Source: a virus
Strand: one strand, 5' to 3'
Length of the DNA stretch: 64,000 nucleotides
IMG/VR virus record: IMGVR_UViG_3300003629_000001
The first letter of the stretch is position 1. Each line of letters opens with the position of its first letter. The position numbers were made by a program, and so were the translations under genes. Under the pieces are notes generated by a model. It was not told the origin of the DNA and made no database searches. It saw nothing but the letters and a program-made list of their open reading frames with translations. Below are positions 11,479 through 41,267 of this stretch, piece after piece.

Positions 11479-13518
11479 ATGAGCCAGCGTATAGAGAATC
11501 AGATACTCGCGGAGCGAGGATACGTGTGGCTCTCGAAGCAGGAGAACGAGTGGATTCCATACGTCGGGCCTGACGGTGGTGAAGGATGGCAACGTGTCGG
11601 TGACGACGAGGTGCGATACCAGCAACGACCGCCGGGAGAGACAGCCCAAGGTGTCGAAGAGAACTACTGGACTGACGATTTCGGCGCTGACGCACTTACC
11701 GAGTTCCTTTCAGAACGTCTTTCTGACGAGGATATGGGTCGTATCGGAGCGCGGGTTCAGGACGCCGCTGAAGCCATGAACTCCGATATAGACACCGAAG
11801 CAGGGTACGTATGGGGTCGTCTTCAGCACCGAGAAGAACGGTTCAATCAGCATTTGGGGGACGCGCCGGAAGGTGCGATAGTCGATTTAGTAGACAGTAT
11901 GCTTGGACGGCGAGAAGCGAAGTTCGCCCAGCGTCAGGAAATGGACGAACTCGCCATGCTGGTCGAAGATAACTCCGACATGGGAACCCGCGACAAACTG
12001 AATATCAGTGAAGCGGTGCGTGAAGTTCAGGACGATACCGACCTGACCGAAGAGGAACTTCGTCAAGACCTTTACGAAATGGTCGAAGACGCGGATATGC
12101 CAGCAGAGTACGTGCTGGATAACGCTGGCCTGAACGCGTGGAAAGACAGCAAACGGGCCGAGTGGCGAGACGAGAATCTGACTGGTGAAGACGCGATAGA
12201 AGTACCCGAAGGCCACGAAGGCGATATTACAGAGAGTGACGTTTTCGACGCGCTCAATCACACGTCGCTTTCCGGGTTCCAACTTCCGCTAAATGACCAC
12301 GACCCGATTCCCGCTGTCGCACAGGCTATGGAAGACCAGTTCGGGGACGACCCGAATAAGATGTACGACGAGATAGAAGCGTTCAACGGTGCTCTCGAAG
12401 GCATTCTCAAGCCGTTTAGTCAAACCAGTACGAACGCGCCGGAACACATGAACCCACAGAATGCCGACGAGGTGGGGAAACTGGATAAGTACACCGATAA
12501 GACCGGGCGGTCGTCTAGTTCCATGTTCGTTGCGAAAGGTGTCCCCGACGAAGACGGGAACAAGCGCGACCTGTATATCACGAACACCAACCGGAATCGG
12601 GAAGGGGCCTACGCACAAGACGACGCCGACGCCAACCGACAGATTCTCGGGTCGAACGGATTCCAAGCGGCGGGTTTTGATTCCCCTGACTCGTACCATG
12701 AACCGGGAGAGTTTTGGGCTGTCGAAGAGGCCCCCGGTGATACTGCTGACGAATTTCACGTCGAAAATGACCTTGACAATCCCGTAGAGCAATTCGCTGA
12801 ACTCGGAGCGGCGGCGGCTGTTCTCGGTGCATGGGACATTCACGAAGGGAACGTATTCATCCACGACGGCGAGTTCGTTCCAGTTGACATGGACTTGGCT
12901 GGTGCTGAACTTCACCACAGCGCCGACCACACGTTCAATCGGTATAACGCTGATTTGAATGGGTTCATGGGTCTATTTCCCCGTATGCAACGACTCTTTG
13001 ACCGCATGGACGGTGGTGATACTATCGACTTTGACGAGATAAAGCAAGCCACGAAACGTCGGGTGGCTGAAATGGGTGAGACGGGAGAGGCCAAGGAAAT
13101 CGCTGAAGCCGGAAAGAGCGACATTACACACTCAATCGGTCGGAACGTTGAAGCCAACGTTAGGGCTATTGAGAACCAGAACTACTTCGAGCGTTACCCA
13201 ACTGACGTGTTGGGAGTAAACGGATACGACGAAATGAGTGATTTCCGCGAGGGTCAGGTCGTAGAGGTGACAGAAGACGACCGAGAGCAAAGGAGTCAAG
13301 AGTTCGAGATTACCGAGACATACGACGACCACGTTGAAGTGACCGCCCTCGAAGACGGTGCGATTCTCGGTGAAGGTGAGCGGTGGAACGTTCACAACCC
13401 CGGTGAGATAACAGAAATCATCGACAGTGGGGGCGACGAAGAGGGCGACCCACCTGACCCGATTGACGCGCTCATGGACGAACTGGACGAGCGGCTGGAA
13501 GACGGTGATAGCGAATGA
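11479..13518 (+). CDS. Array protein 1: WIPY tag + helical domain + HipA/PI3K-like kinase + small beta-barrel
   Basis: Tag at 11551. Kinase motifs WDIHEGN and PVDMD at ~12830-12895. Confidence 0.75.
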   Translation: MSQRIENQILAERGYVWLSKQENEWIPYVGPDGGEGWQRVGDDEVRYQQRPPGETAQGVEENYWTDDFGADALTEFLSERLSDEDMGRIGARVQDAAEAMNSDIDTEAGYVWGRLQHREERFNQHLGDAPEGAIVDLVDSMLGRREAKFAQRQEMDELAMLVEDNSDMGTRDKLNISEAVREVQDDTDLTEEELRQDLYEMVEDADMPAEYVLDNAGLNAWKDSKRAEWRDENLTGEDAIEVPEGHEGDITESDVFDALNHTSLSGFQLPLNDHDPIPAVAQAMEDQFGDDPNKMYDEIEAFNGALEGILKPFSQTSTNAPEHMNPQNADEVGKLDKYTDKTGRSSSSMFVAKGVPDEDGNKRDLYITNTNRNREGAYAQDDADANRQILGSNGFQAAGFDSPDSYHEPGEFWAVEEAPGDTADEFHVENDLDNPVEQFAELGAAAAVLGAWDIHEGNVFIHDGEFVPVDMDLAGAELHHSADHTFNRYNADLNGFMGLFPRMQRLFDRMDGGDTIDFDEIKQATKRRVAEMGETGEAKEIAEAGKSDITHSIGRNVEANVRAIENQNYFERYPTDVLGVNGYDEMSDFREGQVVEVTEDDREQRSQEFEITETYDDHVEVTALEDGAILGEGERWNVHNPGEITEIIDSGGDEEGDPPDPIDALMDELDERLEDGDSE

Positions 13519-16202
13519 CAGAAATTGTTCGAGTCTACGACCGTGACGGTGGCGAGTTGGAAGCAAAGGCTGACGTAGGCCCTGACGGACGCCTGATTCG
13601 GGGTGACGAAGACTTTGCTGAAATCGCTACTCGGTTCCTCGAAGAGCGGAGCGTGGACGAGATACTGACGTATCTGGACGGCCCGCATATGCTGGCTATG
13701 GCGATTGACGTGGACGGCTTAGACTACGACCCCGGCCTTCAAGAGAAAATGGAAGGTCGCCGCGCCGCAAAAGAGACACACCACGTTCCTCACAGTACCC
13801 CTATTGAGAATACCGAGAGAACTCATTGGCTCACCGAACCCCGACTCGGGAAAGTCGGTTGGTACGACAGTGATACCGGTGCGTTCCTCTACAGGGGGGC
13901 CAGCGCCCGCGTGAGTGAGTTGCTGAAGAGTGAAGGCCCCACCAGCGGACTCGAAGAGACACAAACGTCGCTGGTGGACTGTCAGGGGCCGTCCAGCAAC
14001 CTTCTCAAGCAAGACGACGGTCAGTGGATTCCGTACAAGGGGCCACAGGAAGGCGAGGGGTGGCAACAGGTCGGTTCCGGCGAGGTGCGATACCAACAAG
14101 AGCCACCCGGTGACGTAGCGGACGGACATGAGGCCGACCACTGGAAACAACGCTGGCCGGAGATTGAGGGCGCGGAGTGGAACGAAGACGTTCCACACCC
14201 GATTGACATGAAAGAGGAAGACGCTCTTCTCTTCGTCAATCGGAACGGCGAGTCGGAAGTGGGCCGTTTCGAGAGTGCGACATTCATTCGTGACGAGAGT
14301 TGGGATAGTGCGAAGACAGGCGTCACTCTCGCTGACGGTCGTCAAGTTCTGACTGACGACATAGCCGCTCATGCGGATATGACTATGGCGGTCGAACCAC
14401 CGAGTCTTCACGGTGACGAAGAGTGGGGTGACGCCCCCGGAGTCTATTCAGATTACATTCCGTGGAATCTCGTTCACTTTGTGGATTCTGACGGTGAAGA
14501 GCGAGTGGCTATGGTCGAAGGACACGCCGACGACCGGGGTGCGGTGAAGGTGCAAACCAACGAGGGATACACGGTCGTTGACCCGAGTAACATTACTCAC
14601 TACGCCGAGGTTGACCAGTTCTATAACGGCGCTTACGAAGTGCTGGATAGTCCCTTCCGTGGGATTCCAGAGATAGAAGACAACGAACAACCCCCGGACG
14701 AGAACTTTGCACAGCGTGTCGGAGTCACGGCTGACGACGTGAACGCCGCGTTCCGAATGGTTTTTGCACCCCACCTTGTGAGCGTGCTTGAAAACGAAAT
14801 CGAAGAGGGTGGGTACGACGCTGACGACCCGGACGACATAATTCAGGCTATCATCGACGTTCGTGGGTCTGAAGACGACACGACGTGGCAATCATTCAAG
14901 CGAGAACTTCGAGGGCGTTCTGTTGGAATCGGGAAGAGCCGGGCGGAACGTATTGTTAACGAAGCCTTTGCTGGCGAAACCCCCGACCCGAGTTTCGCTG
15001 TTCGTCAGGATATGGACAGGATGGACGACCCGGAAGAGTGGCTGAAACAAGCCGCCAAATTCGCTCACGAAGACGAGTTCGTGTCTATCGCTTCGTTACA
15101 GGACGCGGTGGACGAGTGGAAGGGTGACGGTGTTCCATTCAATCTCAAAGGAATCCACGACTTCGACGGTGAACCCGACGAGGTGGTAGCCCTATCAGAA
15201 ACCGGGACGAACACCGGAATCTCCGCCGGGGCCATGTTCATTGCGGACTGGCCGGACGGTAGTAGGGCGTTCGTCACTCGAATCAAGGATAAGGAAACGG
15301 GCCGACTTGTGTCTAACGACCACATGGAAACGTCCGAAGAGGCCGAACGGGCTATGACTGGCTTCGGGATTCAGAACGAACTGGCTCAAGACAACGAGTC
15401 GATTCAGGTTCCCGACCACACGTACTCAATGGACGAGTATTTCAGCGTGAAGGGCGCTCCCAACGACGCGATACTCGCTGACCAGTTCCTTGAGACGTTC
15501 CCGAGTCAGGACATGGAATTGCCGGACGGCCCGCCTGATACGGATATTGTAGAGTCGGTTGGTGCGACGGTCGAAGACGTACAACAAGCGTTCAGTGAAA
15601 CGGTATATCCGGGCTGGGAAGACCACAACGAGACGAAACAAATCTTCCACAGTGACGACAATTTGGACGAAGAGAACTCACAGGACTGGGTGGCTGTCGC
15701 CAAAATCCGTTATGATAAACCCGACCCACGAATTTGGAACGAGTTCGCCCGTGAACTCGCTGGGTCAGCCTACGAAACGCCGGTTGAACGTGAGACGTTC
15801 ATGGACATGGCGTTCGGAGCGGTCATGGCTGGCAACAAAGATATGCACTCGAATAACGTTATGGCGGATAATGAGGGAACCGTCTACCCAATCGACTTGG
15901 ACTTTGCTGGGTACGACATGACCAACAGCCGCAATTTGAGCGCCGCTATCGGGAAACTCGTCAGTACCGGTCAGGCACTCGGAATCGAACCCAGTGAAGA
16001 GTTCGAGGATAAGGGGAACCCCGACGCTTTTGACGACTCGCAACACCCATTAGCACACGAAATCCTCGCGTATATCCACGACAACGCGACCGAGGAAACT
16101 ACGGAGAAGGTTCGGAGTGGGAATCCGATGTGGCGAGACGGTGGGGCTGACAACGTTGCTCGGAACGCGGAAGCGGCAAAGAACGGAGAACTCGAACTAT
16201 GA
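13515..16202 (+). CDS. Array protein 2: DGP domain + WIPY tag + SH3/KOW-like repeats + kinase
   Basis: N-terminal LDGPHMLA, tag at 14025, kinase motifs GNKDMHSNN and PIDLD. Confidence 0.75.
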   Translation: MTEIVRVYDRDGGELEAKADVGPDGRLIRGDEDFAEIATRFLEERSVDEILTYLDGPHMLAMAIDVDGLDYDPGLQEKMEGRRAAKETHHVPHSTPIENTERTHWLTEPRLGKVGWYDSDTGAFLYRGASARVSELLKSEGPTSGLEETQTSLVDCQGPSSNLLKQDDGQWIPYKGPQEGEGWQQVGSGEVRYQQEPPGDVADGHEADHWKQRWPEIEGAEWNEDVPHPIDMKEEDALLFVNRNGESEVGRFESATFIRDESWDSAKTGVTLADGRQVLTDDIAAHADMTMAVEPPSLHGDEEWGDAPGVYSDYIPWNLVHFVDSDGEERVAMVEGHADDRGAVKVQTNEGYTVVDPSNITHYAEVDQFYNGAYEVLDSPFRGIPEIEDNEQPPDENFAQRVGVTADDVNAAFRMVFAPHLVSVLENEIEEGGYDADDPDDIIQAIIDVRGSEDDTTWQSFKRELRGRSVGIGKSRAERIVNEAFAGETPDPSFAVRQDMDRMDDPEEWLKQAAKFAHEDEFVSIASLQDAVDEWKGDGVPFNLKGIHDFDGEPDEVVALSETGTNTGISAGAMFIADWPDGSRAFVTRIKDKETGRLVSNDHMETSEEAERAMTGFGIQNELAQDNESIQVPDHTYSMDEYFSVKGAPNDAILADQFLETFPSQDMELPDGPPDTDIVESVGATVEDVQQAFSETVYPGWEDHNETKQIFHSDDNLDEENSQDWVAVAKIRYDKPDPRIWNEFARELAGSAYETPVERETFMDMAFGAVMAGNKDMHSNNVMADNEGTVYPIDLDFAGYDMTNSRNLSAAIGKLVSTGQALGIEPSEEFEDKGNPDAFDDSQHPLAHEILAYIHDNATEETTEKVRSGNPMWRDGGADNVARNAEAAKNGELEL

Positions 16203-18751
16203 TAGTGTTTTACCGTCTCGAAGGTCGGGACTACAACGAAATCGGGCGTGTCGAAGACGGCGAAATCGTAGACGGCGAAGAGGAACTGGCTGGTATCGTT
16301 CACCCGCCGAACCTCTCCGACGAAGACGAACTACTCGCCGCTCATGACGGCCCACATATTCTCGCCCAAATGGAAGACGAGTCGCCCGGCGAGGGTGGTA
16401 CTGACGCTAATTCTGATAGGGGTACTGAAAAGTGGGTTCCATACACCAACGGCGACGAACGTGGGTGGATTAGTGCCAGCACTGGCGAGAAGAAATTCAC
16501 CGAGGAGGCCCCCGGCCCGATAGTGAAAGGCTTCGAGGAACAGGCGGAAAACTGGACGGAAGTAAAGACGTTGAATAAGGAGTGGATTCCGTATCAGGGG
16601 CCGCACGGGGGCGAAGGGTGGCAAGAGGTGGAGACTGGTGAGGTTCGCTACGTCGAAGAGCCGCCGGGGCGAGTTGGGACAGGTGATGGCGCTCCGCCCA
16701 GTGACGGCATGACGCCTGAAGAACGGGCGTGGCTGGAAGAGCATGGCGACCCGGAAGCACTGTCGGAGTTGGAAGAAGAGGCCCCTGACGGCACGACAGA
16801 AACGAGTGAAGAGATTACGTGGGACAACGTAGCCGCCGGTGACGAAATCGCCTACTACGATGACTACGGCGAACTACAGCAGGGAGAGGTAACTGCTGTT
16901 GAACAGGACGCGTTCGGTGTGATATGGGTTCAGGACGGTCACGGCAAATCGCCAGTCGAAGAAGAGGATTTCATTGGCACGCCGGACGACAAGATTGGCG
17001 ACGGACTCGAAGCACCTGACCACGCTGGCGCTGACTGGTTCGACAATAACCTGTTCTACGGTCAGACTATCAAACTCTACAACAAAAACACCGACATGGT
17101 GGAATACGCGGACGTAGAGAGTATCTTCGTTGCGGGTGGTGAAATCAACGCTGTCGAACTTGAAGTTCAGAATCAACGTGGATTTGGCGACCTTATTACT
17201 ATCACGAACGACGACATAGACTGGCATGACCAAGACGATAACGGGAAGTACGAAATACGAGAGACGAGTCGCTGGTCGGATTTAGAAAAGGACGAGCAAA
17301 TTGACGCTGTGAGACGTTCTTACCGTGAAAATACTCGTCTTGAGACGATGGGTCGGGCTACGCGGCAAAATCTGAATGACGATATTTCTGAAGATATTAT
17401 CCCCTCGTTTAAGGACATGAACGTCGCCCGTGAGACATTCAAGTCACTCTTCAAAATCGGGAACAAGGTATCCCGAGCGAGTTGTAGCGGAACGGGGAGT
17501 GTTTCAATCAAGGTGTCAGAACGAGCGCCTATCGACACGACGAGACACGAATTTGGACACGCTATCGTCAGTTCGTTCGGATATAATTACAAGAATCGTT
17601 ACAAAAATAGCAATTTCTCTGACGAGAAGTACAGGCGGCGTCCGACGAATTTGTCTCACGAGTATCATGACCTGAAGACCCGGTACGATACCATAGCGTT
17701 CGATTTCAGCGAAGATTCAGATTTCTTTGCCCCCGAAGACTATATGCTTCAGGATACCGACAACGACGGCGAGTTTGTAGACTTTGATTTTGACGAAATA
17801 GAGGCTGGAAGGAACATATACATCGAGCCGTCCGATACCTTCATGTCGAATGAGTCATACGAAATTGAGTCAGTTGGTGAAATGGAAGACGGTAAGTTAG
17901 AAATCCACACCAGTATGGCTCAAGACGCCTATGTTGATAGAGAGGGGACTGTCTATCAGTACGATTCGTTCGGTGGTGGATGGGAAGAGGTTGGGGAAGC
18001 AACCGCATTCACTCAAGAGAAACTACCGCACGGATTCGACGCGTGGAAAGACGCTGTAGAGGAAGAGGTTCACGGAGAAACCGATTTGGAACAGAGGGAG
18101 TACGAGAATACCGAGGGTATGTCGCCCAAAGACGTGTTCGAGTCGGTTGATAAGGGCGACGTAGTTCGGTTCCAGCACGAAGACAAGACGATTCACCTTA
18201 TTGCTCAAGAGAAAGAAAACCTCTCTCAAGAAGACCGGCGTGATTATGAGTTCGTTCACCCCGGCGACGGTTCACAGTGGAATTTCACCGTACAGAGTGA
18301 CAACGGTGAACTTCAGTTCTCTGACCACATTGTTACTGGGTACGACGATACATACGGCGAAGAAGACGGGGACAGCCCGAACGTGGATAATCCTCTTGAG
18401 AACTGGGAAGGGTTTGAGCCAAACCCTGAAACCACTGAACAGAGAATAGATAATTTAGTGTCAGCCGTGAACCGTGCGTGGTACAAGCAAGCCAAAATGT
18501 TCGAGAACGACCCTGCTGATTTCGGTAACAGCGCTTACAGTATTGGGTCGGGATACTCGGCCACAAATGCTCAAGAGACAATGGCGAAAACTCATGAGGT
18601 TTTACAGAACGGCGACCAGTTGGCAACCTCGCATTTGATTGAAGAACATCCGTATCTGGTTGCGGCTTATGTAGAACTGTTTGAGCCGCACTTGTACGCT
18701 AAAAAGGCGATTCATCGTCATGGCGGGGAAGAGTACGGGATAAAAGTATGA
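16199..18751 (+). CDS. Array protein 3: DGP domain + WIPY tags + zincin metallopeptidase
   Basis: N-terminal HDGPHILA, tags at 16433 and 16583, HEFGH at 17546, and downstream YSATNAQETMA (third-ligand motif of lethal-factor-like zincins). Confidence 0.7.
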   Translation: MIVFYRLEGRDYNEIGRVEDGEIVDGEEELAGIVHPPNLSDEDELLAAHDGPHILAQMEDESPGEGGTDANSDRGTEKWVPYTNGDERGWISASTGEKKFTEEAPGPIVKGFEEQAENWTEVKTLNKEWIPYQGPHGGEGWQEVETGEVRYVEEPPGRVGTGDGAPPSDGMTPEERAWLEEHGDPEALSELEEEAPDGTTETSEEITWDNVAAGDEIAYYDDYGELQQGEVTAVEQDAFGVIWVQDGHGKSPVEEEDFIGTPDDKIGDGLEAPDHAGADWFDNNLFYGQTIKLYNKNTDMVEYADVESIFVAGGEINAVELEVQNQRGFGDLITITNDDIDWHDQDDNGKYEIRETSRWSDLEKDEQIDAVRRSYRENTRLETMGRATRQNLNDDISEDIIPSFKDMNVARETFKSLFKIGNKVSRASCSGTGSVSIKVSERAPIDTTRHEFGHAIVSSFGYNYKNRYKNSNFSDEKYRRRPTNLSHEYHDLKTRYDTIAFDFSEDSDFFAPEDYMLQDTDNDGEFVDFDFDEIEAGRNIYIEPSDTFMSNESYEIESVGEMEDGKLEIHTSMAQDAYVDREGTVYQYDSFGGGWEEVGEATAFTQEKLPHGFDAWKDAVEEEVHGETDLEQREYENTEGMSPKDVFESVDKGDVVRFQHEDKTIHLIAQEKENLSQEDRRDYEFVHPGDGSQWNFTVQSDNGELQFSDHIVTGYDDTYGEEDGDSPNVDNPLENWEGFEPNPETTEQRIDNLVSAVNRAWYKQAKMFENDPADFGNSAYSIGSGYSATNAQETMAKTHEVLQNGDQLATSHLIEEHPYLVAAYVELFEPHLYAKKAIHRHGGEEYGIKV

Positions 18752-19734
18752 GACTCATAATCACCAACAACAACGACGAGGAACTGGGCGAGATACGGTC
18801 GAATTTCGAGTTCGAGGCTGATATTCCGTTCGAGGATAAGGAACGGATTCGAGCGCTCATGCGTTCAGCGAAGAAATTCGCTATGGACGTAGGGCCAGTT
18901 GAACGCTCCGGGGGCGCGGATGAACGCGAACTAATTACCCCCGGCGAAGAGGTCGTGGAGTTCGAGACGGACGAAGCACTTCCACGCGTCAAGGTCGCTA
19001 TTGACCGAATGACTCGGTATCATGCTGTCCTCGAAGAGACGGAAGAGCGTGAAGCAATCAAGGCTGTTGACGCTCCGTTCAACGCCCCGGATGGAAAGGA
19101 AGTACACGAAGGGCCGCCCGGATTCTTCTACTACAACGTCAGTAAGGATACTGAAGAATCAGGGGATGGTGAGGTGTTGGAAGTTCGGGATTACTACCGA
19201 GTGTGGGTCAACGACCAAGATAGCGTTCCTGACGACAGCATGGCGCTCTACGACGAAGAGGGCGACCCGGCTGGAAATCACTGGTACTACGAAGTACCGT
19301 TCGAGACGAAGACGCGAATCAATCTTTCCGAGCATGAAGTTGACCCGTCGAATGTGATAGAAAAGGACGCTGACGTTGAACTCTCACCTGACGAACTGAA
19401 CGAGTACGGTATTTGTAAGTCGGATAACGAACGGATACAGGAAGCCAGTGAAGCCGTTGAAAAAGGTGAGCCGGTGTGGGGCGATACTCATTCGGTGAGT
19501 GGGGCTGTTCTCAAGTCAGTAGAGTGTCCGTCGGTGTTGCTCTGTCTCTATAAGTTGTTTCACAATGCTGGCGACGAGTACACCCAATATCTCCCACCGA
19601 TTCAAACTGAACTCAATCACCGTGGCGTCAAGGCGATAGATAAAATTACACGGAAGAAGCGAGATTTCGGTCAAGCGACCGACGACGTGACGCTCGAAAA
19701 GAGCGGCGATTGGCTTGAGTTCGAGCGAGAGTAG
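18748..19734 (+). CDS. Array protein 4: hypothetical; N-terminus is a candidate peptidase inhibitor
   Basis: Coupled by ATGA to the zincin gene. Contains APDGKEVHEGPPGFFYY, a possible tag variant. Confidence 0.6.
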   Translation: MRLIITNNNDEELGEIRSNFEFEADIPFEDKERIRALMRSAKKFAMDVGPVERSGGADERELITPGEEVVEFETDEALPRVKVAIDRMTRYHAVLEETEEREAIKAVDAPFNAPDGKEVHEGPPGFFYYNVSKDTEESGDGEVLEVRDYYRVWVNDQDSVPDDSMALYDEEGDPAGNHWYYEVPFETKTRINLSEHEVDPSNVIEKDADVELSPDELNEYGICKSDNERIQEASEAVEKGEPVWGDTHSVSGAVLKSVECPSVLLCLYKLFHNAGDEYTQYLPPIQTELNHRGVKAIDKITRKKRDFGQATDDVTLEKSGDWLEFERE

Positions 19735-19804
19735 TTTAACCGGTTCTTCCCGAAAGGTCTTACAGTAGGGGTATCAACAGTATTAACAAGAGGCCACTAT
19801 CCCC

Positions 19805-20602
19805 ATGAGCGATTCTGAAGATACGCCAAATGTCGTTGACCTGAACAAGCAGGACAGCGACGACGAGTCGAACGGAGAAGAAAATAGTCCGACTGTGGCC
19901 GAGCAAGCGAAGGAAGGGTACAACGACCTTGACAGTCGTGAAGGTGACGTAGCCCCCGGCGGCAACCCGAACGCACAACAGCGCGACAACTATCCCGAAG
20001 CCGTCAACGAGGAAGACGACGAAGACCCTCAAATCGGTTCTGTCTACGGTCAAGCGCGTCAGGAATACGGCTTCGACCCCGAGGAAGCACAGAAGGCATT
20101 CACCTACAACGAGTACGGGCTGTCGTCTCGCTTTGACGAAGAGAAAGGTTTCTCACACCTCGAACGCGGTGACATGGTGGTTATCGACACGCCGATGGGC
20201 GGCGGGAAGACTGGCGAAGTAACGGACGTAGACGAAACGTGGTCGGGGACGTTGAAGGCCACGGTAGACACCGGCGCGAATAAGTACGAACTGACGCCGT
20301 TTGAAGACGAATACTCCGAGAAATTCGTTGCGTGCGTCAGTGACGCCGGTGAAATGAGTGACGAAATGCTGGGTACGCTCGGCAAGGTGTCGGTCAAGGA
20401 CGTAGACGTTGGAACTCAAGTCATGCTGGACGTGCCGAATGTCGGCCCGACGCGTGGTATGGTTCAGGAAAAGAAGACTACCCGAGAGAACGGTGAGCAA
20501 ATCATCGTCAACACTGGCCCGGTCGCGTTCGACGTGTACGAAGACCCCAGCCCGACGCAAAAGAAAGAACAGCCGTTCCTCGTCGGTCGAATCTCGAACT
20601 AA
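19805..20602 (+). CDS. Array protein 5: acidic N-terminus + two SH3/KOW-like domains
   Basis: LERGDMVVIDTP..TGEVTDV and VDVGTQVMLDVP..RGMVQE repeats, each shortly after a Lys. Confidence 0.6.
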   Translation: MSDSEDTPNVVDLNKQDSDDESNGEENSPTVAEQAKEGYNDLDSREGDVAPGGNPNAQQRDNYPEAVNEEDDEDPQIGSVYGQARQEYGFDPEEAQKAFTYNEYGLSSRFDEEKGFSHLERGDMVVIDTPMGGGKTGEVTDVDETWSGTLKATVDTGANKYELTPFEDEYSEKFVACVSDAGEMSDEMLGTLGKVSVKDVDVGTQVMLDVPNVGPTRGMVQEKKTTRENGEQIIVNTGPVAFDVYEDPSPTQKKEQPFLVGRISN

Positions 20603-20607
20603 CTGTA

Positions 20608-33652: not shown

Positions 33653-35394
33653 TGGTGAAAATCGACGCGTCGGAGTACGAGACGAACTGGCTCACTGACA
33701 GTCCCGAAAAGGAAGGTCAGCCGAACGACGACGAGGAAGTGGCGGAGTCTGACAGTACCCCTACTGAAGAAAATCAGGCCCAGCAAGCCACGAAGGCGCT
33801 CAAGTCCGCTTTGGATTCTACCTTCGAGAAAGACGAGTGGATTCCCTATGAAGGGCCGGAAGGTGGTGAGGGGTGGCAAAATACTCAAGACCCGGACGAT
33901 ATTCGATATGGACTTGACGAACCGCCGGGTGAAGTAGCCGATGGGTACGAAGAGCAAGCGGAAGACTGGGGTGAGAGCAACGAGGAAGACAACGAAGACG
34001 GCGGTTCAGAACTCGGGAACTTCCTTGACGAACTCAGTCATACAGAGGCCAAAGAACCAATTGAACAGGATATACACTCGGTAGCGTCGGATACCGATAC
34101 CAGCCCCGAAGAGGTTGCTGGTCGCCTTCACGACCGACTTGAGCAACGCCAAGACCGAATCGGGAATTTAGACCAAGCCAACACCGAGCAATTTTCCGGG
34201 TTGGCGAACTCTATGCTCGAAAACATCGGGGAAGAGATAATCGAAGAGCGTAACCGAGATGAGTTGACGGAAGCGGTCGAAGGATACGACGAACTCACCT
34301 CTACGAAGGTCACGAATCATTACATCGACAGTGCGGTCGAACAGGTTCAGGAATCGACTGACTGGGGACGTGACGAACTTCGCCAAGACCTACTATCGCA
34401 CCTCGGAGAAGAGGGCGTTGACCCCGAAATCGCGCTGGACGAAGAGGAAGGGTTGGAAGAGTGGGCTGAAGCCAAAATTCAAGAAGCCGAGGAAGGCGCT
34501 GACGCTCCGTCTGACGTTCCTGACGGCTGGGGGAAACCCGAGGAAGTGACGTTCGGAGAATGGACGGAGTTCGAGCAAGGTGACGCCCAGTTCCTCGAAC
34601 ACGGTGATAGGGTTACTGGTACTCGCAACGGCGACGAGTTCGAGGGAACGGTTCGACACACTCCCGAAGACGGACTGGTCGGTATCGAAATGGACGAAGG
34701 TCACGTTCAGACAGTCGAAACGTGGGATATAGACCAGTACCAGAGTCAAGACCGTGACTTGGACGAGACACGCGACGAACTCCGTGACCACTTCAGCAAT
34801 ATCAGCCAGCACAACCAGTCGCTACAAGAGTACACGGGCCAAGCCCACCGAGAAATCAACGGCCATATGCGAGATACCGCGAAAGAGGTAGAAGCGGACT
34901 CGAAGGGGAAACTCGAACACGCTATTATGGCTACTGCTGACGCTGATACCGCTCGGGTAATCAGCGACGTGCAAGCGGCGACAAAACAGACACTCCCCCG
35001 AGAAATGAACGTCGCTCGGGGTATCGACGTGGACGCTGGGTCGTTCATGGACAAGGCTGAAGAGGCTATGGAATCGGGCGGAGCGCTCATGGACGAAGGC
35101 TTCCAAAGCGCGACGATTGACCGAGACGTGGCGGAAGGCTTCGGCAACATCACACTGGACATTCAGACCGACCACGGCGTCTACGCACGGGCCGCCAGCG
35201 AGTTCGCTGGGGAAGACGAAGTGCTACTCCCCGCCGGGACGCAATACGAGGTGAAAGACGTTGACAGGGAGAACAACACCGTCAGCGTCGAAGCCTACGG
35301 CGGATTCAGTTTCAACGTGGACGTGGGCCACGTTCGGGAACTGATTCACGAAGAGGGAATGTCCTACGAAGAGGCAATGGAATATGTCAGATAG
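33652..35394 (+). CDS. Array protein 9: WIPY tag + helical domain + VIP2/C3-like ADP-ribosyltransferase
   Basis: Tag at 33838. YT..INGHMR..VARG..DEGFQSAT..EDEVLLPAG gives the R-S-E triad. Confidence 0.85.
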   Translation: MVKIDASEYETNWLTDSPEKEGQPNDDEEVAESDSTPTEENQAQQATKALKSALDSTFEKDEWIPYEGPEGGEGWQNTQDPDDIRYGLDEPPGEVADGYEEQAEDWGESNEEDNEDGGSELGNFLDELSHTEAKEPIEQDIHSVASDTDTSPEEVAGRLHDRLEQRQDRIGNLDQANTEQFSGLANSMLENIGEEIIEERNRDELTEAVEGYDELTSTKVTNHYIDSAVEQVQESTDWGRDELRQDLLSHLGEEGVDPEIALDEEEGLEEWAEAKIQEAEEGADAPSDVPDGWGKPEEVTFGEWTEFEQGDAQFLEHGDRVTGTRNGDEFEGTVRHTPEDGLVGIEMDEGHVQTVETWDIDQYQSQDRDLDETRDELRDHFSNISQHNQSLQEYTGQAHREINGHMRDTAKEVEADSKGKLEHAIMATADADTARVISDVQAATKQTLPREMNVARGIDVDAGSFMDKAEEAMESGGALMDEGFQSATIDRDVAEGFGNITLDIQTDHGVYARAASEFAGEDEVLLPAGTQYEVKDVDRENNTVSVEAYGGFSFNVDVGHVRELIHEEGMSYEEAMEYVR

Positions 35395-36400
35395 TGAAAA
35401 ATACACAGCGGAAGGCGAAGACATTCGAGTCGTTGGCCCCGAGTGGGGCGAAGAAGACGAGGAAGTGACCACCGAGAAGAACTGGATTCCATATCGCGGC
35501 CCACAAGGCGGCGAAGGCTGGCAAGACACACAGAATCCTAACGACGTTCGGTACGACCTTGACGAACCACCGGGGACAGTGGCCGCTGGGTATAGCGAAG
35601 ACCACTGGGAAATGGACGACCGAAGCACCAGCGTCGAAGACAGTGAAATGGGCTACGTCTCTGAAGGTGCTGGTGGGCCGTCTCTGGACGTTGCCACTGC
35701 TGACCACGCACAGTCCTTACACGAAGCCGGAGCGTCAGAGGGCGCGTCCTCGCGCCATATGCACGTTGCTACGTGGGAGTCCGAAGACGGAGAGCCACGC
35801 CGAGCGTTCGTAACGAACTACGGGCCGGACATGAGACGGAACGAGACAGGCGAGAAACCGCTATTAGGTGAGCGTGCAATCGCCGCTGACGCGTTCTTCC
35901 GCAACATGGGATTCGACCCGCCAAAGCACTTCCTGAACCGCCAGCAACGCTATCTCGCGGTCGAAGGCAAGGACGGGAAGGAAGTACGACACGCTCCCGA
36001 CGAGTGGAAAGAGAACATCGACCGCGACGGAGTGCTGAATTTCGCCGCAACAGCGATTATTGCTGGCAACTCCGACCTTCACCCGAAGAACGTGCTGGTC
36101 AACGAGAACGGTGAGTTCTTCGCGGTGGACTTGGACAAGTCGGGTGGAGATTTCGCTAACGGCCCCGACCGGTTCCAACGCCGTGGATTCCAGTCGATTA
36201 CGTGGACAGCCCGAAACCTCGGTCATAGTCTCTCAAAGGAAGAAATCGACCAACGCGCACAGGAGTTGTGCCGAGATATGGATATTGACCGAATGACCGA
36301 GAACGTTCAAAACAGTACGTGGTCACGGAAAGGCCGACACCAGTTCCGTGATAACATTATTACCAACATTAAAGCACTACGCGAAGGAAGCCTACTGTAA
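35384..36400 (+). CDS. Array protein 10: WIPY tag + HipA/PI3K-like kinase
   Basis: Tag at 35483, kinase motifs GNSDLHPKNV..AVDLD. Confidence 0.8.
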   Translation: MSDSEKYTAEGEDIRVVGPEWGEEDEEVTTEKNWIPYRGPQGGEGWQDTQNPNDVRYDLDEPPGTVAAGYSEDHWEMDDRSTSVEDSEMGYVSEGAGGPSLDVATADHAQSLHEAGASEGASSRHMHVATWESEDGEPRRAFVTNYGPDMRRNETGEKPLLGERAIAADAFFRNMGFDPPKHFLNRQQRYLAVEGKDGKEVRHAPDEWKENIDRDGVLNFAATAIIAGNSDLHPKNVLVNENGEFFAVDLDKSGGDFANGPDRFQRRGFQSITWTARNLGHSLSKEEIDQRAQELCRDMDIDRMTENVQNSTWSRKGRHQFRDNIITNIKALREGSLL

Positions 36401-39400
36401 TGGCTGTCGTTATCGAAGAGTTCGACATAGGAGATATGTCGTGGTCTACCCTCGGTCGCATTGAAGATGGGGAAATTGTGGCCGACGGCGACGGGTTCCT
36501 TTCCGAACTCCTTTCTGACGACGAACTCGGTGACGAAGACGAACTACTGAATCGGTTCAACGGCCCGCGTCTTGTCGCCTATCGTGATAGGGGTACTCTC
36601 GGGAAAAACTGGATTCCGTATCAAGGGCCGATGGGTGGCGAGGGGTGGCAAAACGCGAACGACCCTGACGATATTCGCTACGTAGACGACCCACCCGGAG
36701 AAATCGAAGAGGGGTACGAGGAACAGGCGGAAGGGTGGGGTGAGAGTGACCAAGAGCGTTTTGTCAACGCTGTGGAAGAAGAATACGGAGTTTTCGCCAG
36801 TTCCCTCGCCAACGCGTTCACCGAAGAGACGGTTCTGAAAGACCCCTACGATTCGGGCTACGTAAAACTCGCCGCGAAGGTGGTCTTTGGTGAAAATTAC
36901 CCGGACGAGTCGGTTGCGGAATACTACGAAGAGTTTCGAGAACTCACGAATCTGGATACCATTCAGACGCCGCGAGAAGCGACGATGGACGTTATAGCGG
37001 CAATTGACGAACTCGAACCCACCAAGTCGCAAAAGAATCAGGCACTTGACGCGTTGCGTGACCGGTACAATATCATGCAATCCGCTGACGGGTTGCCTCA
37101 AGTACCGCTGGAAGACAAGGGGCCAAGGGACTGGAAAGAACACGTCCCCGGTCGTGGCGAAGATTACGACTGGGGGACAGTGAACACGCAAGACGCTGTT
37201 CTCTATCAAACCGAAGACGGCCTCATGAATGGCCGAATCTGGAAGTATGAGGGCGAAGACGACCAAGACGTACTCTACACACTGGAAAACGGCGAGACTC
37301 TGTATCACGAAGAGATTGAGGCGTTCTACCCCAACGAGAAAGAAGCGCTCCGGGTCGGTTCAAACGCTCGCGTTTCCGAGGGCAACTTCCTCACTTTCGA
37401 GATTGACGGAACCCCGTATCAAGGAGAAGTATCGACAATTGCGGCGCGTGACGGTCAAAGAGTCGAAGCACTGATTTCGACGCCGGGGGCTATGGTTCGA
37501 CTTTCATCTACTACTGAAGAAGGCCGTGACCCACAACTTGAGTCCGTTCAGGGTGACGACATAGAAATCATCGAACGACAACGAACCCTTCCTGACGATT
37601 TTGAGGGAATGGCGGAAGGCGTCAATCGGGAAGCGGACGCGGTTGCACGCGACATTACGGATAATCTCGGTGACGAGTGGCATAGAAGTATGTCGCTTGA
37701 GCGAGACGTGCAAAATGAGTTAGAGAAATACTTCTCTTCGACCGCTGTCAGTCAGTTTTACGAAGCCGTCAACGACTGGAAACAGGACGCTTCAAGTGGC
37801 CTCTCCGGCCTTCACGCGTCGTCTTTCCAAGAAGCGCTGGATATACACAGCCCCGCTCGCGGGTGGGACGAACCCAGCAAAGAGAACGTTCAGGTAGCGA
37901 AGGTCATGTACGAAGTGAGTCAGGAATACCTGAAAAAGACTCACGGAAGTAGCGTTCGCTTACACCGAGGAATGTCTAACACCGGATTCCGTCGGTTGAT
38001 GGACACATGGTTAGAGAACCCGAACGCTGACGAATACGACTTGAGTCAAATGGCGTTGAACAACTATACGCCACAGGTGGGTATTGCTGAAGGATTCGCA
38101 CACGATACGGCTGTCGTCACCAGTCGTGTCAGTACAGACAATATCGCGTTCGCTATGGACGCCCTCGCCGCTCGCTCAATGGACAACGAAGGCGAGGTTC
38201 ACGTCATGGGCGACGGTATGACGGTTGACCACAGCGATATTGCGTTCGGTGAACACCGAATCGAACTTGACGAGTTCCCCGACGGCTGGTCGCTTGAAGA
38301 GCATGAAGACATGGTGGAACAACTCAAGCACCACTACGCTGGTCGAATGCCGCTTCCGAAAGAAAGCCACGAAGAAATCTTCCAGAAGTGGGCGGAATCA
38401 GTCAAAGAGAACCACCCCGAACTGGTCGAAGGCCCGAATCCCAACCCCGAGATACAAGAACTCGTCAAGACAATCGAAACTGACGCATTCCTACAGTACG
38501 AGGTTCGACAAGGGCCACAGACCCAACTGGACGAGTTCGAGGATAAGCAGGACTCGAACCCAGTTATCGACCTAACTGACGACGCGTCCGCTCGGTGGTC
38601 GGCCTATGACCCCGCCGAGATTCCCGACACAGTGAAAGAGACGAAATGGAACCAGTACCGGAACTGGCAACAGAGTCTACAGGAGAAATCCAGTAGCCCC
38701 ATTGGAAAAGCGTGGATTCCCTACGAAGGCCCGCGAGGTGGGGAAGGTTGGCAAAGTGCGAACGACCCGAACAAAGTCGTCTACCAGCAAGAGCCGCCGG
38801 GGGAAGTGGCCGACGAGTACGACGCCGACCACTGGGAAGAGTATCCGAGTGACGGTAACTGGCCCGAATCGCCACACGGAACGCCGTGGGAACAGCCACA
38901 GGGCTTCGGACGAGACGCGGGTATGCAACTCACCGACGCGGTGGCGTTTATCAACTACGACGACGAGGTAGTGGCTGGCGAAATTGCGGAGTTCAACGAC
39001 GACGAGAAGACGTACAAACTCGAAAATGGCTACGTAATCAGCCACAGTCAGGTCGTCGGCTGGTCGCAACCGCCCGAAGGTGAGCGCGTCGAAACGTCTG
39101 TTGGTATGGTTACTGAAGGCGACTGGATTACCTACGACACGTCCTACAGCGAAGACCACGTTGCACAGATTTCCGACATAGAAATCAACGACGACAAAGA
39201 CATTATCTCGGTCGTTGGGGAACACGGTTATTACGAGATTGAGGTGTCCGGGCGTCCGAACAACCGCAACGAGTTCAACGCTAAAGTTCAGCGTATCCAC
39301 ACCGAGGAACCCGACCTGTTCGAGAACGTCGAACAGAATGGCATGGCTATGGAAACCGACGATATTGTCGGTGAAATGAGCGAGCGAATCGACCTGAAAG

Positions 39401-41226
39401 ACACCATGCACCAGAGCGACCAACTCAAGCAAGAGCAACGCGAGAATATCCGAAACACGCTTGAGACATACTTCCCTGAACAGTACGTCAACGCGTACTA
39501 CGGGTCTATAGAGTCGTGGAAGGTCAACAACGCGGCTGGAAGTGCTGAAGAACACGAAACGGCGTTCAAGGAAGCACTGGGTATCGAATCGCCGTCGCAC
39601 GCTGAAGCACTACACGACAAAGAGCCGTCTACAGCGGCGAAGGCACACCAGAAGATAGCGAAGGTCATGGCTGACCTCTCTGACGAATACTGGGAAGCAA
39701 ACTTCGGTGGCCGCGCCGAGGTACATCGTGGTATCTCGAACACGGCATTCGAGAATCTATTCCCCCAGTGGCTTGAGACACCCAACGCGACGAAGTACAA
39801 CGTCAAGCAACTCGCTCTGAACAACTTCAGCCGGAGTCGGCATACGGCCAACGGATTCGGGGAACGTACTGCTGTCGTAACGCTGGACGCCGACAAGGAC
39901 GACGTGGTGCTATGCACAGACGCGATTAGTAATATCGGTACTGTGCAAGACGAAGCCGAAATTCAGATTCATGGTGACGACCAATCGGTTGACGCACGCG
40001 GTATCGACCTGTTTGGGAAAGATGGGCCGACGCTGGGCGAACACCCTTCGGAGTGGGAGAAGGGCGAACACGTAGAGTTCGGTCAATTTCTGACCGGCTA
40101 CTATATGCGGAAAACAGACGACGTGGAAGAAGGCGAAGCGCCGATTCCCGAAAAGCACTACAAGACGCTTCTTGAGTGGACGCGAGCGCTGACCGAAACG
40201 TATCCTGACTTGGCACGTCGTCAGCCCACTCTCAATAGCCTTACCAGAGAGATTGAGCAAGACGCCGATACCTACTTCGGACTCGGCCCGCTCGGAAAGC
40301 AGTACACCGGTACGTTCACCGAAGAGACGACTGACAGCACGGAATATCCTACTATCGACTTGACTGACGAAGCGTCCGCGACATGGCTCTCTGACGCCAG
40401 TCAGAAACCCGAGCGAGAAGACATTTCACCCCAGCTATTCGAGCAACTGGTCGAAGCCAATCGCAAACGCCGAGAATCTATCAATACGGATACTGACGAA
40501 AGTGACACTGGCCCCATGCGGTTGAAGGGCCGTGTGGAAGTAGGGGCATTGAACAAACCGGACTGGAATCCGGTCAAGGACAGCACCCTTCAGAAAGCGA
40601 GTGACAACTTCCTGAAAGTTGACGACCTGCTACTGGACGCGTGGGAAAAACAAGTGTGCGCGGATTCGATTGAGAAAGCACCCGAAATGTGGCAACGGGG
40701 AGATAACGTCCCTCAATTCGTCCGCACGTTCGTCGCACAGGCCGCGACCAAACGAGACGCCCTGTGGGACGAATACAACGACGTGCCGCACATGGCGGCG
40801 CTGAAAGTCCATGAGATAATCAAGGACAACGTGACGAGCGACGGGTGGTCTATCAAAACCATAGCGGACGACCTGACTGACGAGTTCGAGGGTATCAGTA
40901 AGCGCCAAGCCGAAACAATTGCTCGCACCGAGGTAGCCGCTGTGCTAAACGACGCACGGGCTATGGCGTACAAGTCGTCGGATTACGACCTTCAATTTTA
41001 CTGGTCAGGGCCACAGGACGAACACACGACTGATATTTGCACCGAGGTAAAGCAAGAAATAGAGAATCGTGGTGGCTACGTCAGTATGGATACTCTGAAG
41101 AAAATTCTTCGAGAGAAAGCCCGGAAGCACCGCGACGACGGTGGGACGCCGGAGAGAGTGTCAAGTTATTTACCACATTTCAACTGTAGACACACGTTAG
41201 TTAGAAGCGAGTTCCGCTGGACGTAG
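36400..41226 (+). CDS. Array protein 11: DGP domain, 2 WIPY tags, 2 ART-like domains and C-terminal MuF (SPP1 gp7-like) domain
   Basis: Tags at 36610 and 38713. ARTs HRG..LNNY..EGE and HRG..LNNF..EAE. MuF motifs AETIARTE..W..D..T..IC..PHFNCRH. Confidence 0.85.
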   Translation: MAVVIEEFDIGDMSWSTLGRIEDGEIVADGDGFLSELLSDDELGDEDELLNRFNGPRLVAYRDRGTLGKNWIPYQGPMGGEGWQNANDPDDIRYVDDPPGEIEEGYEEQAEGWGESDQERFVNAVEEEYGVFASSLANAFTEETVLKDPYDSGYVKLAAKVVFGENYPDESVAEYYEEFRELTNLDTIQTPREATMDVIAAIDELEPTKSQKNQALDALRDRYNIMQSADGLPQVPLEDKGPRDWKEHVPGRGEDYDWGTVNTQDAVLYQTEDGLMNGRIWKYEGEDDQDVLYTLENGETLYHEEIEAFYPNEKEALRVGSNARVSEGNFLTFEIDGTPYQGEVSTIAARDGQRVEALISTPGAMVRLSSTTEEGRDPQLESVQGDDIEIIERQRTLPDDFEGMAEGVNREADAVARDITDNLGDEWHRSMSLERDVQNELEKYFSSTAVSQFYEAVNDWKQDASSGLSGLHASSFQEALDIHSPARGWDEPSKENVQVAKVMYEVSQEYLKKTHGSSVRLHRGMSNTGFRRLMDTWLENPNADEYDLSQMALNNYTPQVGIAEGFAHDTAVVTSRVSTDNIAFAMDALAARSMDNEGEVHVMGDGMTVDHSDIAFGEHRIELDEFPDGWSLEEHEDMVEQLKHHYAGRMPLPKESHEEIFQKWAESVKENHPELVEGPNPNPEIQELVKTIETDAFLQYEVRQGPQTQLDEFEDKQDSNPVIDLTDDASARWSAYDPAEIPDTVKETKWNQYRNWQQSLQEKSSSPIGKAWIPYEGPRGGEGWQSANDPNKVVYQQEPPGEVADEYDADHWEEYPSDGNWPESPHGTPWEQPQGFGRDAGMQLTDAVAFINYDDEVVAGEIAEFNDDEKTYKLENGYVISHSQVVGWSQPPEGERVETSVGMVTEGDWITYDTSYSEDHVAQISDIEINDDKDIISVVGEHGYYEIEVSGRPNNRNEFNAKVQRIHTEEPDLFENVEQNGMAMETDDIVGEMSERIDLKDTMHQSDQLKQEQRENIRNTLETYFPEQYVNAYYGSIESWKVNNAAGSAEEHETAFKEALGIESPSHAEALHDKEPSTAAKAHQKIAKVMADLSDEYWEANFGGRAEVHRGISNTAFENLFPQWLETPNATKYNVKQLALNNFSRSRHTANGFGERTAVVTLDADKDDVVLCTDAISNIGTVQDEAEIQIHGDDQSVDARGIDLFGKDGPTLGEHPSEWEKGEHVEFGQFLTGYYMRKTDDVEEGEAPIPEKHYKTLLEWTRALTETYPDLARRQPTLNSLTREIEQDADTYFGLGPLGKQYTGTFTEETTDSTEYPTIDLTDEASATWLSDASQKPEREDISPQLFEQLVEANRKRRESINTDTDESDTGPMRLKGRVEVGALNKPDWNPVKDSTLQKASDNFLKVDDLLLDAWEKQVCADSIEKAPEMWQRGDNVPQFVRTFVAQAATKRDALWDEYNDVPHMAALKVHEIIKDNVTSDGWSIKTIADDLTDEFEGISKRQAETIARTEVAAVLNDARAMAYKSSDYDLQFYWSGPQDEHTTDICTEVKQEIENRGGYVSMDTLKKILREKARKHRDDGGTPERVSSYLPHFNCRHTLVRSEFRWT

Positions 41227-41267
41227 CCAACCAAATCTTCTTGACTGTCGCCATACTGTTGTACGGT

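Follow-up and report, generated by a model that had tools for sequence, protein, structure and literature searches.

A 29.7-kb array of tagged multi-enzyme genes in a halovirus head module, a probable archaeal expansion of the phage polyvalent-protein system

Results

Eleven coupled genes encode strings of tagged enzyme domains

The window analyzed here is a 64,000-nucleotide stretch of the virus record IMGVR_UViG_3300003629_000001 (bases 28361-92360 of a 100,408-bp IMG/VR record rated 98% complete; all positions are window coordinates). Between its genes for the portal protein and the head maturation protease, 11 plus-strand open reading frames (ORFs) of 265-2193 amino acids (aa), here called g1 to g11, fill 29.7 kb, or 30% of the genome. 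About 14 enzyme domains were recognized in this array by motif and alignment: five PI3K-like kinases, seven ADP-ribosyltransferases (ARTs), one HExxH zincin-like domain and one ParB-like domain. Nine of the 11 proteins are strings of modules, with a small tag ahead of each enzyme domain. By analogy with phages, we favor with moderate confidence the reading that the array is an archaeal-virus expansion of their polyvalent-protein/MuF-linked effector system, with products that travel in the capsid and enter the host together with the DNA.

A first-pass annotation of the sequence had described 11 co-oriented, mostly translationally coupled genes at 11479-41226, and this was reproduced: of the ten junctions, eight leave no gap (five ATGA overlaps, two TAATG junctions and one 11-nucleotide overlap), and gaps of 5 and 70 nucleotides separate the genes at the other two. 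The longer gap, between g4 and g5 (19735-19804), is the sole real intergenic gap in the array and contains a palindrome-like motif, CAGTAGGGGTATCA, which may mark an internal promoter. The array also lies in the portal-to-protease interval to which it had been assigned, but it is flush with neither gene: an HNH and a DUF192 gene separate it from the portal, and an HNH/HTH gene and three small ORFs separate it from the protease. The proteins total 9,891 aa, and one copy of each comes to about 1.09 MDa.

The repeating unit that had been proposed (tag, spacer, enzyme and class-specific element) was supported, except that g4 and g5 carry no tag, and the count of five kinases, seven ARTs, one HExxH domain, one ParB-like domain and a terminal MuF domain was obtained again. 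The gene layouts are as follows, LEAD and the DLT peptides being described below.

11479..13518 (+): g1, 679 aa; tag, helical spacer, kinase, small C-terminal beta module
13515..16202 (+): g2, 895 aa; LEAD, degenerate tag, tag, spacers, kinase
16199..18751 (+): g3, 850 aa; LEAD, degenerate tag, tag, beta spacer, HExxH zincin-like domain
18748..19734 (+): g4, 328 aa; no tag, no family match; both halves recur in other tag arrays
19805..20602 (+): g5, 265 aa; no tag, no family match
20608..24741 (+): g6, 1377 aa; tag, ART, VDLT..W peptide, tag, spacers, kinase, C-terminal beta modules
24738..31319 (+): g7, 2193 aa; LEAD, tag, ParB-like domain, tag, ART, tag, ART, degenerate tag, tag, small domain, tag, kinase
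31316..33652 (+): g8, 778 aa; LEAD, tag, long spacer, ART
33652..35394 (+): g9, 580 aa; tag, helical spacer, ART (Pfam ADPrib_exo_Tox)
35384..36400 (+): g10, 338 aa; minimal unit of tag and kinase, structure modelled
36400..41226 (+): g11, 1608 aa; LEAD, tag, ART, IDLT..W, tag, ART, IDLT..W, MuF

The halves of g4 are found fused to tagged proteins in other arrays, and a homolog of g5 lies directly upstream of the MuF gene in two IMG/VR contigs, L006 and L007.

The tag is an old mini-domain

The tag spans 30-45 aa, with the consensus W-[IV]-P-Y-x-G-P-x-G-G-E-G-W-x-N-x-x-T-G-E-V-R-Y-x3-P-P-G; 14 exact W-[ILVM]-P-[YFW] sites align across about 45 residues. A hidden Markov model (HMM) built from 13 copies recovered 16 copies, all in frame, in nine of the 11 genes (independent E-values, i-E, of 1e-23 to 7e-5); neither the other frames and strands of the window nor the remainder of the 100,408-bp genome yielded a further match. 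Two additional degenerate copies were recognized by eye, at about aa 105 of g2 and aa 1405 of g7. The 16 copies are:

11542..11673 (+): tag, g1, i-E 9e-21
14016..14150 (+): tag, g2, i-E 2e-20
16427..16561 (+): degenerate tag, g3, i-E 7e-5
16574..16696 (+): tag, g3, i-E 5e-19
20680..20805 (+): first tag, g6, i-E 5e-17
22357..22500 (+): second tag, g6, i-E 2e-20
24960..25055 (+): first tag, g7 (WTPY), i-E 7e-12
25992..26132 (+): second tag, g7 (WRPY), i-E 6e-13
27297..27443 (+): third tag, g7, i-E 1e-21
29103..29231 (+): fourth tag, g7, i-E 1e-18
29823..29975 (+): fifth tag, g7, i-E 7e-22
31556..31678 (+): tag, g8, i-E 3e-19
33829..33981 (+): tag, g9, i-E 1e-21
35474..35620 (+): tag, g10, found by the tag HMM; modelled strands 33-38 and 44-48
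36601..36750 (+): first tag, g11, i-E 5e-21
38704..38850 (+): second tag, g11, found by the tag HMM and contained in the g11 model

In the structural models of g10 and g11, the tag is a small beta meander with a predicted local distance difference test score (pLDDT) of about 80, while the flanking linkers fall below 50. The single-module proteins g1, g9 and g10 have 24-62 aa ahead of it. A Lys had been thought to precede each tag; it stands at position -2 from the tag Trp in eight of the 16 array copies (overall Lys content, 3.3%) and is missing from the other half.

Profile searches of PDB sequences with the tag returned nothing meaningful and listed no WW domain, and the idea of a WW-domain-like fold, based on a W...G...aromatic-x-N...T...aromatic...P spacing, gained support from no tool result. 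Pfam searches of the array proteins and their homologs yielded no model for the tag. Self-cleavage by the tag was rejected as unlikely, as it has no invariant Ser, Thr, Cys or Asn.

Where two tags have the same residue, third-codon identity between them is just 0.46, and they share no DNA word longer than 23 nucleotides. The tags are thus old and kept alike by selection on the peptide, and this third-codon identity excludes recent duplication or gene conversion. The same figures bear on the proposal that the array stores toxin cassettes for exchange, comparable to polymorphic-toxin loci, with the tags as recombination joints. Module order does vary among related arrays, and the same modules occur as separate genes and as fusions; however, the synonymous sites of the tags are randomized, no DNA word above 23 nucleotides is shared, and all units are in-frame coupled ORFs without silent fragments. 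We regard this proposal as very improbable, though it is compatible with capsid-borne delivery.

Five PI3K-like kinases, each followed by a LEAD module

Five segments share the signature G-N-x-D-x-H-x-x-N ... [IV]-D-x-D-x-x-G. Within it, D-x-H-x-x-N and the downstream metal-binding Asp (D-x-D) are invariant in the five array kinases and in 11-17 homologs, and a profile of the family aligns to the catalytic loop of PI3K-alpha (G-D-R-H-x-x-N ... D-F; E 0.04). An AlphaFold model of g10, tag plus kinase, reached a pLDDT of 81, and Foldseek gave 220 PDB matches for it at E<=1e-3, headed by PI3K-alpha/delta, VPS34 and Rio2 (E 5e-5, probability 1.00). No Pfam PI3_PI4_kinase match was seen on the array proteins at E<=0.01. 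The kinase identity given to the five segments at first pass is thus supported, by the predicted fold of g10 in particular, as PI3K-like. HipA had been named alongside PI3K; no HipA Pfam match was found on the array proteins and HipA is absent from the 49 listed g10 fold matches, with no further HipA-directed test made.

12421..13188 (+): kinase domain, g1 (GAWDIHEGN ... VDMDLAG)
15117..16199 (+): kinase domain with an insert, g2
23380..24057 (+): kinase domain, g6
30525..31316 (+): kinase domain, g7
35651..36397 (+): kinase domain, g10 (Foldseek PI3K/VPS34/Rio2, E 5e-5)

Across the wider family, the kinase is the last module in 41 of 44 cases, compared with 18 of 42 proteins for the ARTs. The gene that follows a kinase-ended gene, and is translationally coupled to it, opens with LEAD, a module of about 60 aa (M-x-[IV]-x-x-[YF] ... 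D-G-E-I-V ... D-G-P-x-x-x-A) with an invariant G-P. This holds in five cases out of five here, and also in L006 (twice), L010, L011 and L012 (LEAD at L006 11176-11364 and 15470-15643, L010 1281-1472 and L012 24761-24949).

13515..13739 (+): LEAD at the start of g2, after the g1 kinase
16199..16423 (+): LEAD at the start of g3, after the g2 kinase
24738..24959 (+): LEAD at the start of g7, after the g6 kinase
31316..31540 (+): LEAD at the start of g8, after the g7 kinase
36400..36609 (+): LEAD at the start of g11, after the g10 kinase

LEAD could be a cognate regulator or inhibitor of the kinase, or a non-covalent link that chains the polyproteins together. A predicted complex of the g7 kinase with the g8 LEAD (score 0.00, mark 0.32) was uninformative either way.

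Seven ADP-ribosyltransferases in three classes

Seven segments keep the Arg, Ser/Thr motif and [QED]-x-Glu of R-S-E-type ARTs, and none of the seven departs from the Arg or the final Glu; the middle motif reads N-Y-[ST], S-W-[AS] or S-A-T, and g8 has D-N-E at the [QED]-x-Glu position. The g9 domain matches PF03496 (ADPrib_exo_Tox, 6e-11) and PF01129 (ART, 9e-9). A g11 ART has a DRAT match (3e-5) that lies below the cut-off, and homologs of its class, class a, which it shares with g6, reach 4e-8. The classes were linked by hhalign (b with a, 99.5%; a with c, the g9 class, 81%; kinase control, 0.2%). A mixed ART alignment searched as a profile against PDB sequences gave nothing meaningful.

21280..22017 (+): ART class a, g6
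26505..27167 (+): ART class b, g7
28185..28847 (+): ART class b, g7
32993..33595 (+): ART class b, g8
34729..35391 (+): ART class c, g9 (Pfam ADPrib_exo_Tox 6e-11, ART 9e-9)
37687..38379 (+): ART class a, g11, first (weak DRAT match; model match to ARTs)
39427..40179 (+): ART class a, g11, second

A model of g11 residues 430-830 (pLDDT 78) matches the Vis, iota-like, C3 and VIP2 ARTs. Its top VIA match is the Vis ART (Z 7.5, root-mean-square deviation 4.9, 162 residues aligned), and 13 further ARTs stand among the first 33 VIA rows, many at Z 5-6; the Foldseek matches are weak (E 0.15-1.5), yet enriched in ARTs. Pfam (g9) and the hhalign links between classes support the earlier assignment of all seven segments as ARTs, and the fold matches of the g11 model point the same way.

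The class-a ARTs are followed by an [IV]-D-L-T-x-D...W peptide, conserved in homologs, with sites at 22276-22296, 38566-38598 and 40354-40386 and also at 27237-27254. In the g11 model it forms a three-residue strand (pLDDT 83) with disordered linkers on both sides, and the top ART alignment reaches as far as this strand. This strand probably docks on the ART, to judge from the model.

The conservation of these catalytic signatures bears on whether the proteins might instead build an internal core or ejection apparatus (cf. T7 gp14-16 and the phiKZ inner body), their enzyme folds being secondary or inactive and the tags serving as repeated contacts that polymerize the core. The large total mass and the recurrence of small beta spacer modules would fit such a structure, as might the PPG at the end of the tag, speculatively a ligand for a neighboring tag. 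Catalytic signatures are nevertheless kept in five of five kinases, seven of seven ARTs and their homologs, and we consider a structural core quite improbable.

MuF, zincin-like and ParB-like domains

The array ends, as the first-pass annotation had it, in a MuF domain: the g11 C-terminus matches Phage_Mu_F (PF04233; aa 1474-1550, 29.7 bits against a gathering threshold of 29.6, E 1.2e-6) and shares 46-49% aa identity with the annotated gpF-like proteins of HCTV-1 and HVTV-1.

17216..17878 (+): zincin-like domain, g3 (HEFGH at 17546-17560)
25575..25997 (+): ParB/Srx-like domain, g7
40597..41223 (+): MuF (gpF-like) head-morphogenesis domain, g11 C-terminus

The single zincin and single ParB/Srx-like domain of the earlier count keep invariant motifs in their homologs (T-x2-H-E-x-G-H in eight homologs of the former; Q-E-G-R-H-R-x2-A-A in nine of the latter), but neither family has a PDB sequence profile match, and none of the 19 homologs has a Pfam match. 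Weak leads came from an Atlas feature search with a language model, which returned ATLF, Peptidase_M90 and Mx1 clusters at 0.81-0.83 for the zincin-like domain and, for the ParB-like domain, a viral cluster (best match, 0.93) with ParB_N in 26% of its members. We therefore call both domains at the level of motifs.

The tag and its arrays recur in other viruses

Among 1.84 billion representatives, the tag profile found 490 protein clusters at E<=1e-3 and 160 at <=1e-10, with up to six tag copies per protein. In the best 150 of the 490 carriers, 108 have a halophile-like composition and 42 do not, and both sets share the core W-[VI]-P-Y-x-G-P-x-G-G-x-G-W-x-N-x-x-T-G-E-[VI]-x-Y-x3-P-P-G. In these 150 carriers, a tag separates 110 of 112 recognized kinase, ART, zincin or ParB domains from the previous enzyme or the N-terminus, no tag occurs within 129 residues of the C-terminus, and the median tag spacing is 365 residues; from these positions, the tag is the head of its module. 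Tagged proteins also carry, among other cargo, a poly(A)-polymerase-type nucleotidyltransferase, AAA/STAND NTPases and an InPase.

Some non-halophilic, metagenomic carriers join the tag to head proteins. P0061 combines Portal_Mu with tags, P0064 combines Portal_Mu with NTPases, a PI3_PI4_kinase (Pfam 1.2e-10) and tags, and P0005, which has a Pfam ART-PolyVal match, adjoins a portal-InPase-tag-MuF fusion. The InPase region (aa 435-798) of the portal-InPase-tag-MuF protein at locus L004 matches the PHROG 'DarB-like antirestriction' family. By domain content, these non-halophilic carriers are textbook polyvalent proteins. A marine <0.22-um member occurs in one cluster. Their TerL-like neighbors had no match in cultured phages.

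In a second uncultured halovirus (Logan SRR23092357 contig 15278, 113 kb; L011/L012), TerL and a 721-aa portal are followed by coupled genes over at least 28 kb; this array bears at least 22 tags and encodes kinases, both ART classes, two zincins, two ParB-like modules and a tagged poly(A)-polymerase-type nucleotidyltransferase. The first-pass annotation knew of no described archaeal-virus system on the scale of our array; this second array shows that the scale is not unique, although no published description was found in the literature searched. Within IMG/VR, a scan with a very strict derived pattern gave only five loci, and contigs L006 and L007 hold an 11-kb version that ends in MuF. In cultured HCTV-1 and HVTV-1, the portal-to-protease interval of about 10 kb holds large hypothetical proteins, gpF and a 'zeta toxin' protein. 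HMMs detected class-a ART domains in HCTV-1 gp107 and gp109 and in HVTV-1 gp115, which places them in the 'hypothetical' gp107 and in the 'zeta toxin' proteins of both viruses; gp107 and gp115 also have weak, degenerate tags (sites at L001 8517-8594, 9207-9872 and 13224-13859; L002 10955-11032, 11927-12481 and 12887-12976). These small versions are experimentally tractable.

These relatives also speak to the role of the tag. One proposal makes it a pure processing landmark, a folded element that presents a linker to the head protease or a g3-type zincin, with incorporation left to MuF, the portal or passive enclosure alone. Portal-fused proteins need no address yet bear the tag, both models place flexible linkers beside it, and a Lys just ahead of it is a lineage-specific trait of halophiles, all of which would suit such a landmark. 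A 30-45-aa domain kept across halophilic and non-halophilic viruses, however, exceeds the needs of a protease site, and the single-module proteins g1, g9 and g10 carry it too. We judge a processing role alone to be unlikely.

The surrounding head module

The proteins of this virus are strongly acidic (D+E 22.5%, Lys 3.3%), which marks it on sequence grounds as a halovirus, a virus of salt-loving archaea. Its TerL, HNH and portal genes show 65-68% nucleotide identity over parts to the haloarchaeal siphoviruses HVTV-1, HCTV-1 and HCTV-5 (Druskaviridae). The head module is laid out as follows, tail genes coming after the major capsid protein (MCP).

6000-7457: TerL
7460-8023: HNH gene between TerL and portal
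8025..10184 (+): portal protein
10181-10765: HNH gene upstream of the array
10720-11475: DUF192 protein, upstream of the array
11479-41226 (+): array, g1 to g11
41241-41987: HNH/HTH gene with NUMOD3, downstream of the array, then three small ORFs
45376..47319 (+): head maturation protease with a scaffold-like tail
47327..48667 (+): MCP, its start placed at the ATG after the protease stop

Three HNH endonuclease genes are scattered in the head module, with the array flanked by HNH genes; they probably encode homing endonucleases of the kind noted for HVTV-1 and HCTV-5. In the portal, two pairs of CxxC motifs probably form zinc-ribbon inserts, and the tail is rich in Gly and Pro. The protease-scaffold protein contains a Cys cluster and two E-V-P-P-E repeats besides poly-Gly and poly-Glu. 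Over its first ~60 residues (47327-47510), the MCP is Lys/Arg-rich, which is unusual in this proteome; HCTV-1 and HVTV-1 share this stretch, which ends at a conserved K-A-D-G. It could be a removed propeptide, with a candidate cut site resembling the Lys before the tags.

Discussion

How the array might work

If the array is a capsid-carried effector system, its products, as late head-module proteins, would be made with the head proteins and built into the procapsid, anchored through MuF-portal contacts, through binding of the tag to a conserved head-internal partner, or through both. The flexible linkers beside the tags would then be cut by the head protease or by the array's own zincin, separating the modules, and the proteins would leave the capsid with the DNA. 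The freed kinases and ARTs would phosphorylate and ADP-ribosylate host targets early in infection.

The position of the co-oriented, translationally coupled array within the TerL-HNH-portal ... protease-MCP block is consistent with this reading, and a head-internal location is strengthened by relatives that fuse the tag to portal, MuF and ART-PolyVal domains. It is possible, in contrast, that these late-made proteins act unpackaged in the producing cell, in host shut-off, anti-defense, lysis timing or superinfection exclusion, the tag helping a cytoplasmic multi-enzyme complex to fold or assemble. The large cargo mass agrees with action in the producer, as does the listing, in reviews, of haloviral ART and zeta-toxin genes as metabolic genes or as genes or toxins without an assigned role. 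Against this stand the location inside the head-assembly block, the MuF domain at its end and the tag in portal- and MuF-fused proteins; moreover, early-acting enzymes would gain nothing from late-only synthesis unless they were carried over. To us, action in the producing cell has a low probability, about that of a purely processing tag.

The tag may be a loading signal, a processing element or both. That it is conserved across very different viruses and predicted to fold suggests that it binds a conserved partner inside the head; that it occurs in portal fusions, with a lineage-specific Lys upstream, suggests that it presents cleavage sites. A bolder form of the effector reading, which we put forward tentatively and think rather doubtful as a whole, is that the tag is a portable head-cargo signal of archaeal and bacterial tailed viruses, which would bind a head-internal partner and mark sites of release by the protease, that about 14 enzymes are loaded and injected in this way, and that LEAD restrains or chains the kinases.

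Several observations weigh against capsid delivery or the tag's part in it. The tag has no invariant nucleophile and hence is unlikely to cleave itself, the Lys at -2 depends on lineage (it is present in 56% of 176 halophilic copies elsewhere, compared with 12% in non-halophilic ones), and portal-fused carriers would need no loading signal. PDB and Pfam offer neither a sequence nor a fold match for the zincin and ParB calls, the window proteins match no PolyVal family of Pfam (E<=0.01), and the large neighbors gp106 and gp113 in HCTV-1/HVTV-1 have no tag detectable by HMM. A mass of ~1.09 MDa for a single set would limit copy number in a T=13-class head. Lastly, genes of the NAD+/ADP-ribose system, including ARTs, are reported to be far commoner in myoviruses than in siphoviruses (PMC9503650), and the cultured relatives here are siphoviruses.

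Were capsid delivery confirmed, archaeal tailed viruses would share the phage strategy of injecting a protein toolkit with the DNA, here at the cost of 30% of a 100-kb genome, which would imply an intense, unexplored conflict with haloarchaeal defenses. The tag would offer a sequence handle for virion-delivered effectors in metagenomes, where most of the 490 clusters have unnamed cargo domains, and might also serve as a portable signal with which to load foreign proteins into HK97-type capsids. New enzyme families with archaeal targets would be represented by the PI3K-like kinases and by the three classes of ART, and, if the portable-signal idea is right, no larger set of virion-borne enzymes would be known from any archaeal virus. 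The small versions in cultured HVTV-1 and HCTV-1 make the idea directly testable.

Comparison with known systems

The closest parallel is with the polyvalent proteins of phages (Iyer, Burroughs, Anand, de Souza and Aravind 2017, PMC5512222; extended in PMC9503650), for which packaging, processing by a zincin and injection have been predicted. They too are giant multi-enzyme proteins beside portal and terminase genes, with a repertoire of MuF, ART, zincin-like peptidase, ParB and kinase domains, and Pfam ART-PolyVal occurs on a tag-bearing relative (P0005). Two or more unrelated enzyme domains likewise share one polypeptide in g6 (ART and kinase), g7 (ParB-like, two ARTs and kinase) and g11 (two ARTs and MuF). 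In contrast, our array belongs to an archaeal, halophilic virus, spreads its domains over 11 coupled genes and carries PI3K-like kinases rather than the truncated Ser/Thr-kinase type of PMC5512222. The ART-PolyVal, MPTase-PolyVal and LPD models gave no match at E<=0.01 in the 11 array proteins or 58 homologs, and the main text of PMC5512222 makes no mention of the tag, the rule that LEAD follows the kinase stop or the ART-IDLT strand.

Other packaged effectors resemble the array by analogy, as the first-pass annotation had suggested for MuF-linked and T4-type proteins. In MuF polymorphic toxins, MuF usually bears one C-terminal toxin; here it stands at the C-terminus of a protein with two ARTs, the last in an array with ten further genes. 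The MuF-fused effectors of temperate phages (MuF-ART, PMC9503650) have in common with g11 a portal-proximal MuF joined to an ART. For T4, internal proteins and Alt share an N-proximal element on unrelated cargo that includes an ART, and the head matures by proteolysis. The T4 capsid targeting sequence (CTS) is an N-terminal peptide of about 10 aa that is removed by gp21, whereas the tag has 30-45 aa, is predicted to be folded, stands at internal positions too, in up to six copies per protein, and has no sequence similarity to it. The likeness is thus one of analogy only, and the tag is not a short N-terminal CTS-type peptide. Alt itself is cited as a packaged ART in PMC5512222.

The P1 proteins DarB and DdrB are very large, head-carried, processed enzymes that act on arrival, DdrB having ParB-like and zincin domains (PMC5512222). 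Our array resembles them in its large enzymes, which may be processed and include putative ParB-like and zincin-like domains, and the InPase region of the tag-bearing L004 protein has the DarB-like PHROG match; the Dar genes, however, lie outside the head operon and loading occurs via dedicated partner proteins. We know of no repeated tag in the Dar/Ddr proteins. The HCTV-1/HVTV-1 locus shares the TerL/portal/MuF/protease/MCP backbone, class-a ARTs and degenerate tags (gp107, gp115), but it spans ~10 kb with three or four genes, has a zeta-toxin-type rather than a PI3K-like kinase, and holds few, weak tags. No description of such an array or tag was found in the literature searched. The principle is already published as the polyvalent-protein hypothesis (PMC5512222, PMC9503650); what is new is an archaeal-virus array of this size, a PI3K-like kinase family, the kinase-LEAD and ART-IDLT rules and the apparently undescribed tag that heads the modules.

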